In this document: positions 3,553 to 10,793 of the stretch, one piece after another
How positions within the stretch are numbered: the first letter of the stretch is position 1
How the letters are laid out: the number at the start of each line of letters is the position of its first letter
NCBI GenBank assembly: GCA_963776345.1
Contig: CAVZMH010000001.1
Coordinates: 96,001-160,000 of the forward strand
Direction: 5' to 3'
DNA from: an uncultured delta proteobacterium
GTDB lineage: Bacteria > Myxococcota > Myxococcia > Myxococcales > Myxococcaceae
DNA: 64,000 nucleotides
The notes under the pieces: generated by a model
What the model saw: the letters and a program-made list of their open reading frames with translations, nothing else
The model's database searches: none
Told to the model about the DNA's origin: nothing
Program-made: the position numbers and the translations under genes

Positions 3553-4476
3553 GTGCTAGCAGGCACGCGGGTGGAGAGGCCCGCGCTCGTTCGGTCGACT
3601 GTCCTCTCCCGCGCGGCCGCCGGGGGGCTGGTCCGGCTCCTCCAGGCTCTTCCGCTCCGGGCCGTGGACGCGCTCGCCCGGGGCGTGGCGGCGCTCGCCT
3701 ACGCCCTGGGCATCCGACGGCGGGTGACGCTGGACAACCTCGCCCGGGCGTTCCCCGAGCGGTCCGAGCCGGAGCGGCGGGCCATCGCCCGCGCCGCGTA
3801 CGCCAACATGGCGCGGGTGGTGGTGGATGCGCTTCGCACGCTCGGCGCGCCGCGGGAGCAGCTCCTGGCCGAGGTGCAGGTGGACGACTTCGGTCCGGTG
3901 GAGCGCGCGCTGGCGGGCGGGCGGGGGCTGCTGGTGGCCACCGCGCACCTCGGGAGCTGGGAGCTGTTCGGCGCTGCGATGGCCCAGCGCGTGCCGCTCC
4001 ACGCCGTCGTCCGTCCGCTGCGCGGCGGGCTGAACGCCCGGCTGGTCGAGGCGCGGGAGCGGGCGGGGCTGCGGCTGATTCCGGCGCGCGGCGCGTTGTC
4101 CGGCATGGTGGCGGCGCTCCGGCGGAACGAGGTGGTGGCCATGCTGATCGACCAGGCCATCGGCGGGAAGCATGCGCTCTATGTGCCCTTCTTCGGCCGT
4201 CCGGCGGCGACCACGCCCGCGCTCTCCATGGCCGCGCTCCGGACGGGCGCGCCGACGCTGCTGGTGGTCGCGCTCCGCGAGCAGGGAAGGCTCCGGTTCA
4301 GGGTCGAGGGACCGTTCGAGGTGTCCGACACCGGCGACCGGCAGCGAGACCTCTTCACCCACACCGCGCAGGTGACGGCGGCCCTGGAGCGCGTCATCCG
4401 GGAGGCTCCCCAGCAGTGGCTCTGGCTCCACCGGCGCTGGAAACTCCAGCCCCCGGGGGTCAGCCGGTCATCGTGA
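3553..4476 (+). CDS. Lipid A lauroyl/late acyltransferase family (LpxL/HtrB-like)
   Basis: TAHLGSWE, MLIDQ, VPFFG, PQQWLWLHRRWK motifs; true start may be the GTG at 3571. Confidence 0.85.
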   Translation: MLAGTRVERPALVRSTVLSRAAAGGLVRLLQALPLRAVDALARGVAALAYALGIRRRVTLDNLARAFPERSEPERRAIARAAYANMARVVVDALRTLGAPREQLLAEVQVDDFGPVERALAGGRGLLVATAHLGSWELFGAAMAQRVPLHAVVRPLRGGLNARLVEARERAGLRLIPARGALSGMVAALRRNEVVAMLIDQAIGGKHALYVPFFGRPAATTPALSMAALRTGAPTLLVVALREQGRLRFRVEGPFEVSDTGDRQRDLFTHTAQVTAALERVIREAPQQWLWLHRRWKLQPPGVSRSS

Positions 4477-5929
4477 ACGGCAGGTCGTTGCCCCGCGTCG
4501 GAAGCCGCGACGGCGCGCCGGTCAGCACCGAGTCGATGTCGCGCGCGGCCTCGCGCCCGTCGGAGATCGCCCAGACGATCAGGCTCGCGCCGCGCCGCGT
4601 GTCGCCCACCGCCCAGACGCCGGGCCGCGAGGTCCGGAAGCGGCCATCCACCCGGACGTTCCCGCGGGCGTCGAGCGCGAGCCCGAGCTGCGACTCGAGC
4701 GCCGCCGTCTCCGGCCCGAGGAAGCCCATCGCCAGGATGAGGAGGTCCACCTGGCGGGTCGTCTCCGAGCCGGCGACCGGCGCGATGCGGGTCCGGCCCG
4801 TCTCGTCGCGGTCCAGCCGCACCCGGGCCAGCTCCATCTCCGCCAGCCAGCCGTTCCGGCCGATGAGCCGGGTGGTGGAGAGCCCGAACTCCCGCTCTCC
4901 GCCTTCCTCCTGGCTCGACGAGGTCCGGAAGACCAGCGGCCAGTCCGGCCACCAGTTCCCGGTGGCGCGGGTCTGAGGTGGCGCCGGGAGCAGCTCGATC
5001 TGCTCGACGTGCGCCGCACCCTGGCGCAGCGAGGTGCCCAGACAGTCCGAGCCGGTGTCGCCGCCGCCGAGGATGACCACGTGCTTGTCCGCCGCGGAGA
5101 GCTCGGGCGGCAACGGGGCGCCGCCCACGTGGCGGTTCTGCGCCTCCAGGAAGTCCATGGCCCAGACCACGCCCGGAAGCTCGCGCCCGGGGACGACGAG
5201 GTCCCGGGGACGCCGCGCGCCGAGCGCCAGCACCACCGCGTCGTGCTCGGCCGCCAGCTGGTCGAATCCCGGGGCCGTGCCCACGTCCACCCCGCAGCGG
5301 AAGGTCACGCCCTCGGCCTCGAGCAGCGCCACCCGCCGCTCGACCAGCGACTTCTCCAGCTTGAAGTCGGGGATGCCGAAGCGGAGCAGCCCGCCCGGCG
5401 CCGGAGCCCGCTCGTACACGGTGACGGTGTGCCCCGCGCGGTTGAGCCCCGCCGCCGCGGCCAGGCCCGCCGGACCGCTCCCGACCACCGCCACCGTCTT
5501 GCCGGTCCTGGACGCCGGAGGACGCGGGCGCACCCAGCCCTCGCGGAACGCCCGGTCGGCGAGCTCCTTCTCGATCTGCTCGATGGTGACCGGCGCCTGG
5601 TCGATGGCCAGCACGCAGGCCGCCTCGCAGGGCGCGGGGCACAGCCGTCCGGTGAACTCGGGGAAGTCGTTGGTCGACGACAGCGTGGCCCAGGCCTCCT
5701 CCCAGCGCCCGCGCCAGACCAGGTCGTTGAAGTCGGGGATGAGGTTCCCCAGCGGACAGCCCTGGTGACAGAAGGGGATGCCGCAGTCCATGCAGCGCCC
5801 GGCCTGGCGCCGGCTCTGCTCGGTCGCCTGCGGGAGGATGAACTCCCGGGTGTCGTGCACCCGCTCCGACTTCGCGCGCTTGGGCGGCGCCTCGCGCTGC
5901 CACTCCAGAAATCCGGTGACCTTGCCCAT
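4460..5929 (-). CDS. gltD: Glutamate synthase small (beta) subunit
   Basis: MGKVTGF; CMDCGIPFCHQGCP; GRLCPAPCEAAC; GSGPAG; GGGDTGSDC; GDTRRGASLIVWAI. Confidence 0.95.
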   Translation of the reverse strand: MGKVTGFLEWQREAPPKRAKSERVHDTREFILPQATEQSRRQAGRCMDCGIPFCHQGCPLGNLIPDFNDLVWRGRWEEAWATLSSTNDFPEFTGRLCPAPCEAACVLAIDQAPVTIEQIEKELADRAFREGWVRPRPPASRTGKTVAVVGSGPAGLAAAAGLNRAGHTVTVYERAPAPGGLLRFGIPDFKLEKSLVERRVALLEAEGVTFRCGVDVGTAPGFDQLAAEHDAVVLALGARRPRDLVVPGRELPGVVWAMDFLEAQNRHVGGAPLPPELSAADKHVVILGGGDTGSDCLGTSLRQGAAHVEQIELLPAPPQTRATGNWWPDWPLVFRTSSSQEEGGEREFGLSTTRLIGRNGWLAEMELARVRLDRDETGRTRIAPVAGSETTRQVDLLILAMGFLGPETAALESQLGLALDARGNVRVDGRFRTSRPGVWAVGDTRRGASLIVWAISDGREAARDIDSVLTGAPSRLPTRGNDLPFTMTG

Positions 5930-5931
5930 TA

Positions 5932-6111
5932 GTGCTCCGACCGGGGGATGGTGAACACAGCGAGGCGGCCGAGACCGAAGCGAGACGGCGCACCAGAGGA
6001 GCGAGCCGCGGAGGCGTGCCTTGCGGCACGTCGAGCAGCGGAGCGACGAGGCTGCGCGTCGCAGCGAGAGGATCGGATGCCGCAGCGTTCAGCATCCCCC
6101 GGTCGGAGCAC
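5932..6111. mobile_element. 180-bp MITE-like palindromic element
   Basis: 25-bp terminal inverted repeats (GTGCTCCGACCGGGGGATGGTGAAC at 5932-5956 vs 6087-6111; 24/25 identical), flanked by TTA direct repeats (5929-5931, 6112-6114), central hairpin CGTGCC-TTGC-GGCACG (6015-6030); no transposase. Confidence 0.85.
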
Positions 6112-10653
<4,542 letters not shown>

Positions 10654-10793
10654 TTCCAAGACCTCCCGAACGACCGGTCTGCCGCACAGCGGCAAACTCA
10701 CAGCGTACGGGAAGTGGCTGACCCGGCTCAAATGTGGGCGGCCGCCTCCGTTCACTGCCCCCGATGAGGCGGGCTTCCGCGGGCGGGCTCGAG

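Follow-up and report, generated by a model that had tools for sequence, protein, structure and literature searches.

A family of inverted-repeat elements at stop/start junctions of Myxococcota operons, probably tolerated through ribosome restart

The window, i.e. the whole stretch of 64,000 nucleotides that was analysed, carries on its minus strand the genes gltB and gltD, both of which passed the NCBIfam cut-offs (Table 1). A preliminary description of this DNA had placed a 180-bp MITE between the two genes, with a TAA on both sides, and the sequence confirmed this element at 5932-6111. Its 25-bp terminal inverted repeats, identical at 24 of the 25 positions, were also as described, and so was its frame of 60 codons, which begins with a GTG, ends in a TAA overlapping the gltD ATG, and is stop-free on the plus strand as well. 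The 3′ end of gltD overlaps by 17 bases (4460-4476) with the 3′ end of a convergent gene (3553-4476) resembling a lipid A acyltransferase.

Table 1. Genes and element features at the gltB-gltD junction (positions in the window).
Feature	Position	Strand	Basis and remarks
gltB, glutamate synthase large subunit	6112..10755	-	NF008730, 1789 bits; stop TAA 6112-6114, preceded by GGT
gltD, glutamate synthase small subunit	4460..5929	-	TIGR01317, 623 bits; ATG 5927-5929
MITE-like element, 180 bp, GTGC...GCAC	5932..6111	-	sequence
5′ terminal inverted repeat, 25 bp	6087..6111	-	sequence; relay ORF starts at its outer end (GTG)
3′ terminal inverted repeat, 25 bp	5932..5956	-	sequence; 24/25 match
GGAGGG, Shine-Dalgarno-like, near the end of gltB	6116..6121	-	sequence; function inferred
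GGAG within the 3′ inverted repeat, predicted new Shine-Dalgarno site	5935..5938	-	5 nt before the gltD ATG
Relay ORF, 60 codons, GTG to TAA	5929..6111	-	predicted; stop overlaps the gltD ATG (TAATG)
Second TAA, stop of the relay ORF	5929..5931	-	apparent 3-bp duplication, at gltB-gltD only
Central hairpin, GTGCC-GCAA-GGCAC	6015..6030	-	stem covaries, loop sequence varies

The similarity of the two arms extends to 32 nt at 91%. The element has a G+C content of 72% and a C-rich sense strand (74 C, 55 G). Frames 0 and 1 are stop-free on both strands, and frame 2 contains an early TGA on both. Among 20,000 base shuffles, 47% were open in the relay frame and 15% on both strands, so the openness of this single G+C-rich copy is unremarkable. 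In the empty allele, the GGAGGG near the end of gltB, with a computed duplex of -9.8 kcal/mol, precedes the gltD ATG; in the filled allele it is found 4 nt upstream of the element's GTG. As RNA, the element is predicted to fold at -106.8 kcal/mol (z = -8.2), and none of 200 shuffles was equally stable. Searches of Rfam (no match at E ≤ 1), of NCBIfam with five frames of the element (no match) and of a plasmid collection (element not found) were negative; two Pfam matches were both below cut-off and were taken as chance.

The central hairpin, which may resemble the cores of RPE-like repeats, is present as described earlier and its stem covaries. The role suggested for its GNRA loop did not hold, because the GCAA loop occurs in only one of 27 aligned 180-bp copies, the one at gltB-gltD. 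In these 27 copies, compensatory changes affect 17 of 50 predicted pairs, located in both the central hairpin and the terminal stem; DNA-level conversion between the arms can also produce such changes.

The gltB-gltD element is not a single copy, a case that the preliminary description had left open. Five copies were found in its own genome (G000). Four are full, namely the one at gltB-gltD, one of 180 bp at recO-glyQ, one of 180 bp before a gene for an ABC ATPase, and one of 240 bp inside a transporter operon. The fifth has collapsed to 33 bp at hscA-fdx (L323, C13:68497-68529). The element was present in all 12 relatives of the same genus and in 27 of 60 relatives overall; among the matches listed, the named records with full-length copies were Myxococcaceae, Myxococcales or Myxococcota bacteria. 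From 80 loci we obtained 67 copies with both ends, 64 of them in the genus, and 14 loci lacked an end pair. The family shows inverted repeats, shortness, absence of a transposase, dispersed copies and empty orthologous sites. By structure, the element is a MITE, probably of the IS630 type.

In a tree of the 64 copies, 34 of the 61 inner branches were open. Copies from the same site grouped for L014/L094/L110, L008/L085 and L083/L114, and other same-site copies did not group. At three sites (L030/L101; L081/L092/L107/L117; L006/L097), species differed in both the length variant and the orientation of the copy. This suggests inversion, conversion or repeated insertion at one site. At hscA-fdx, collapsed copies of 33, 27, 66 and 18 bp were found in four species (L323, L337, L339 and L341, respectively), all running from GTG to stop in frame, and nine other genomes of the genus have spacers of 0-4 nt there.

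The flanks of the copies indicate the target site. Among the 67 copies, the commonest flank pair was CTA..TAG (12 copies); an A was found at position -1 in 60 and a T at +1 in 64, and intact TA..TA flanks were retained in only 13. For co-directional copies, the 3′ flank was TAG in 29 of 39, and a whole stop codon stood directly before the GTG in 14 of 39. At recO-glyQ, the filled allele equals the empty allele of G003 plus 182 bp, with a clean duplication of TA. In G032 and G047, CTA..TAG flanks predominate among the homogeneous copies, and in one of these genera different ends surround the same core. IS630 elements duplicate a TA target (PMC2170065). The family probably duplicates TA at CTAG, as IS630 elements do, rather than TWA. 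A model without duplication, in which the element is 182 bp with A...T ends, fits some sites (L008) and is indistinguishable from TA duplication followed by drift at flank identities of 77-96%. The flanks were probably remodelled after insertion.

There are 1121 CTAG tetranucleotides in 5.1 Mb; of the 1110 that were scored, 362 end a coding-like frame. Because CTAG is both rare and often a frame end, an element seeking it would be steered to stop codons without any further mechanism. The element lies at stop/start junctions, as described earlier, and a preference for CTAG would suffice to account for the suggested targeting of stop codons.

The gltB-gltD site itself has a more complex history. 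Six of the seven runs compared carry an empty allele, GGC TGA TG, which is 183 bp shorter. In three of these (X2, X3, X7), 236-295 bases of flank show only 3-5 differences from the window. The seventh, X1, contains both filled junctions with one difference each and may be the source sample. Near-identical strains thus differ in whether this site is filled or empty. The earlier expectation that removal of 183 bp would restore TAATG was correct in length, but the real empty alleles read TGATG. The empty allele lacks a TA, so the filled allele is not a product of simple insertion into it. In the two comparisons of TGATG-type junctions, filled alleles exceed the summed length of element and empty site by 3 bp. 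Furthermore, TAA accounts for 86 of 3100 stops in G000, yet it flanks the gltB-gltD element on both sides.

The empty junctions that the preliminary description had expected in relatives were found, again as TGATG instead of TAATG. Among eight other species with an intact gltB-gltD junction, TGATG occurs in G003 and G009. The junctions of G007 and G012 read stop-GCGGAGCACTC-ATG and G010 has a shorter form, all of which match the right end of the element; G005, G008 and G011 have short spacers. In G007 and G012, the stretch with the GGAG of the 3′ inverted repeat is thus all that is left of the element. From these sequences, we infer an old insertion at gltB-gltD that later collapsed or was exchanged by recombination. 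Three gltB-gltD junctions (L032, L033, L034) retain only the last 7-9 bases of the element, so that GGAG or GAG stands five bases upstream of the ATG.

We examined the ends of 32 IS630 loci to identify a candidate mover; the ends were not callable in 20 of them. The best match among the 12 loci with callable ends was an IS630 in G007, which ends in TA-GTGCCCCG, lies at CTAG in both copies, and shares with the element the outer 8 bp and the CTAG context. The two copies (L121, L122) are ~1.16 kb long; one has an unbroken frame of 382 codons, and the other differs by one base and has a split frame. No cognate transposase was found in G000: neither PF13358 nor tblastn detected an IS630 transposase in this genome, which is 98% complete. 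Likewise, no transposase was found within exact-end pairs in at least 120 loci carrying the exact end pattern, and no autonomous partner in 30 order-level loci. Two Streptomyces loci gave IS630 matches, outside any matching pair of ends. Judged from the ends, the family was likely spread by an IS630-type transposase, although the match is of only 8 bp and G000 has no such transposase.

We compared the length and reading frame of the copies between different gene contexts. Flanking genes were called by codon score without use of the element, and the calls are our own. The 64 copies in the genus comprised 36 co-directional, 8 convergent, and 20 unclear or divergent copies. The length was a multiple of three (3n) in 35 of the 36 co-directional copies versus 3 of the 8 convergent copies (Fisher p = 0.0003), and counted by site in 21 of 22 versus 3 of 8 (p = 0.002); shared ancestry of the copies inflates the significance of both p-values. 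Among the unclear or divergent copies, 15 of 20 were 3n. A founder of 180 bp is 3n by descent, and therefore selection is tested by the length variants alone. Ten of the 11 distinct lengths other than 180 bp were 3n; the exception, 236 bp, stops 7 nt into the next gene. The length check proposed earlier thus turned out positive, and at the level of the family these data support the earlier view of a non-autonomous element whose frame is kept so that coupling may be rebuilt.

The position of the stop is conserved as well. The sense frame from the GTG was open in all 36 co-directional copies. In 33 of them it terminates no more than 6 nt from the right end, versus 9 of 36 for the antisense frame, and in 33 the relay stop lies between -8 and +15 nt of the next start. 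The exceptions are L090 and L093, which stop 25 nt short, and L102, which is fused to the next gene. Both orientations occur among co-directional copies, even at one site (L030, L101). At L012, the upstream gene extends 23 nt into the element. Where the flanking TAG was lost, an overlapping ATGA or GTGA stands in its place (L010, L067 and the copy on C16 of the own genome). The copies in G032 (181 bp) and G047 (180 or 181 bp) have no fixed frame, and one G032 copy is fused in frame to the next gene.

A second set, outside the 67 copies, was assembled from truncated matches and orthologous junctions. Its 16 members are co-directional copies or remnants in which the GTG is preserved. Remnants without GTG were omitted, as were L019, L084 and L118, which were unclear or cut, the unscored L069, L071 and L113, and the convergent-like L313. 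In this set, 11 of the 16 end between -1 and +2 nt from the next start, and three, whose right end is missing, continue in frame into the downstream gene. Of the remaining two, L077 terminates at the flanking TAG, without a called start, and L350 terminates 10 nt beyond a TTG. Every one of the ten shortened copies that retain both ends is 3n (144, 126, 126, 123, 117, 66, 33, 27, 18 and 9 bp), the shortest being at the ABC-ATPase site.

In 30 copies of 180 bp we counted 190 distinct changes, which created one stop in frame 0 versus 6.6 expected, and 15 versus 17.7 in the other frames. The synonymous share was as random, with 63 of the 190 changes versus 59 expected. A functional peptide was rejected, given this random synonymous share and lengths ranging from 3 to 107 codons. 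Judged from these comparisons, what is kept appears to be the act of translation and not the peptide.

The two ends of the element have the same layout. Each carries an inward-reading GTG, and a GGAG or GAGG sits three or four bases in from the far end, so that both orientations offer a start codon and a ribosome-binding site. Duplication of TA at C-TAG gives a TAGTG overlap in front and an in-frame CAC TAG at the back. Shine-Dalgarno-like sites were found before the downstream start in 30 of the 36 co-directional copies, and before the element GTG in 17 of 36, versus 7 of 36 on the antisense side.

This layout suggests a relay of ribosomes across the insertion. At gltB-gltD, a ribosome finishing gltB would restart at the terminal GTG of the element, translate the relay ORF and thereby melt the hairpin stem, stop at TAATG beside the gltD start, and restart on gltD. 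The element would be tolerated at such operon junctions since the downstream gene would still receive ribosomes. The predicted fold of free mRNA leaves no unpaired base in the GTG or the GGAG of the gltB-gltD element. When 9-15 nt of the 5′ arm were blocked in the computation, the accessibility of the gltD GGAG rose to no more than 0.21, and a ribosome that terminates on gltB would therefore seem unable to melt the site sufficiently by itself. Translational coupling is described in PMC12548453 as most efficient at -4 to +3 nt. Counting against a relay, PMC7518266 describes lower re-initiation when a stable hairpin or other structure lies just after the stop. The full pairing of the GTG in free mRNA and the copies without a fixed frame in G032 and G047 also speak against it.

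We assign a probability of about 0.7 to the reading that this is a family of inverted-repeat elements at stop/start junctions, likely spread by an IS630-type transposase and probably tolerated because ribosomes would restart in the element and be handed on to the next gene. The selected benefit would be coupling and probably also protection from polarity. More tentatively, and at somewhat less than even odds, IS630-type ends with a TA/CTAG target may form a self-contained two-way relay, with start codon, ribosome-binding site and stop codon, whatever lies between them. Such elements would enter core operons, and the host would trim them by threes to relays of a few codons and then to a bare ribosome-binding site.

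An alternative is that translation is selected mainly to cover 180 nt of otherwise bare mRNA against Rho-dependent polarity or nucleases, with the downstream gene starting afresh at the Shine-Dalgarno site in the inverted repeat. This would account equally well for the open frame and the 3n lengths, and it agrees with the C-rich sense strand and with the action of RNase III/E on NEMIS and ERIC hairpins described in PMC2229807. It does not obviously call for a stop only a few bases from the following start, a position that is kept even in remnants of 9-33 bp, which are too short for polarity. We therefore regard it as unlikely to be the main explanation; protection of the mRNA and a ribosome relay are not mutually exclusive.

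Less probable still is an ordinary TA-targeting MITE seen through survivor bias. Such an element would land at CTAG, its founder would by chance have been 180 bp and G+C-rich, and without any translation the hairpin would bring stop and start together. The frequency with which CTAGs end coding-like frames, the 47% openness of shuffled sequences, the 181-bp forms in other genera and the three species with just an SD-bearing remnant of 8-11 nt at gltB-gltD all agree with this view. It fails on the length variants and shortened copies, of which 10 of 11 and 10 of 10, respectively, are 3n at co-directional sites, whereas 5 of 8 convergent copies are not. The IS5/PIF-Harbinger-like element with a 3-bp TWA duplication, here of a stop codon, that the preliminary description had favoured is very improbable: it would suit the TAA/TAA flanks at gltB-gltD, TGA/TGA in L117, the whole stop codons directly before GTG and the 3 extra bp at both TGATG-type junctions, but only 2 of 67 copies show a duplication of 3 bp, most of the homogeneous G032 and G047 copies are flanked by CTA..TAG, recO-glyQ has a clean TA duplication, the empty gltB-gltD allele has TGA and not TAA, and the best match of the ends is to an IS630.

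The proposed relay can be compared with several known repeats. MIRUs insert at start codons with a -4 nt spacing, and their internal ORF is coupled to the downstream gene, such that insertion was proposed to be nearly harmless (Supply et al. 1997, as given in PMC12548453). Like MIRUs, the element is a short mobile repeat at gene junctions with an internal ORF that ends at the downstream start. In contrast to MIRUs, as compared by description only, it has 25-bp inverted ends, TA/CTAG flanks and both orientations. Its insertions also follow another rule, with the TAG end mostly at -1 to +4 and a -4 spacing in only 3 of 36 copies.

RUP (linked to IS630-Spn1), Correia/NEMIS and ERIC elements, in the account of PMC2229807, likewise have lengths of 100-200 bp, terminal inverted repeats, TA flanks, a long RNA stem and co-transcription, and RUP is tied there to an IS630 by its similar ends. 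These elements are described as A+T-rich, whereas our element has its high G+C content and a frame constrained by gene context. Unlike our element, RUP has stops in all six frames, and the ORFs of RUP, NEMIS and ERIC are described in the same source as gene fusions, whereas those of our element run from stop to start as putative relays. According to PMC2170065, ISY100 of the IS630 family duplicates TA, and in 3 of 39 insertions a TA on one side was paired with a lone A on the opposite side, which resembles the conserved A at -1 of our element. Our element differs from IS630 elements in having no transposase gene, and matches the IS630 of G007 in the outer 8 bp alone.

Short ORFs of integron attC sites and ORF-11 of attI1 are also described as crossing a stem-loop, with termination-reinitiation to the next gene and little importance of the peptide (PMC8876359). 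The attC sites of that account are recombination sites of gene cassettes, whereas our element is a dispersed inverted-repeat transposon. Rickettsia palindromic elements (RPEs), which the preliminary description had named as precedents, are palindromic repeats with open frames, but they represent another arrangement: in PMC2229807 they are fused in frame inside protein genes, whereas the classified copies of our element lie at gene ends. Insertion within genes as in RPEs was not seen among the classified copies; three truncated copies are fused to gene starts. Chunjie elements, as reviewed in PMC3184786, differ in being A+T-rich and in having 9-bp repeats. A search of the open literature, covering few subscription papers, found no description of this element family. 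The relay lifestyle has a precedent in MIRUs; what seems to be new is the signal of selection and the two-way design of IS630 type.

The family serves as its own control, in that copies between co-directional genes preserve the frame and copies between convergent genes have lost it; for MIRUs, the relay was a proposal from layout. Moreover, the copies form a natural deletion series from 107 to 3 codons in which the geometry of the junction is kept and the peptide is free to change. The frame contrast and this deletion series provide comparative evidence, at the level of sequence, of selection on translation itself. Pairs of filled and empty gltB-gltD alleles within one species offer natural material to compare re-initiation with RNA unfolding through the 25-bp stem. 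If the two-way relay holds, operons would repeatedly have acquired intergenic spacers and Shine-Dalgarno sites from transposon ends. The results are also a warning that such inserts get annotated as hypothetical small proteins or false N-terminal extensions.

Several minor observations concern related sequences. At ~2600-2630 of the window lies an empty site, where G006 has a 180-bp copy (L002) directly on a TAG stop. Tandem copies, 0-4 bases apart, were found in G006 and G002 (L061, L064, L068, L074), several of them at contig ends. The 16-base end of the element, among the matches listed, also occurs on unrelated short elements (L123-L242) in Elusimicrobia, Actinomycetota and Acidobacteriota, with lengths that are not limited to 3n. 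In other families, the same core is found within other inverted ends, in L017 and L280-L287 (G047), and in L015, L023, L024 and L292. The G047 ends start with GGAGG and have a GTG five bases further on, which would be a different possible design of a relay.
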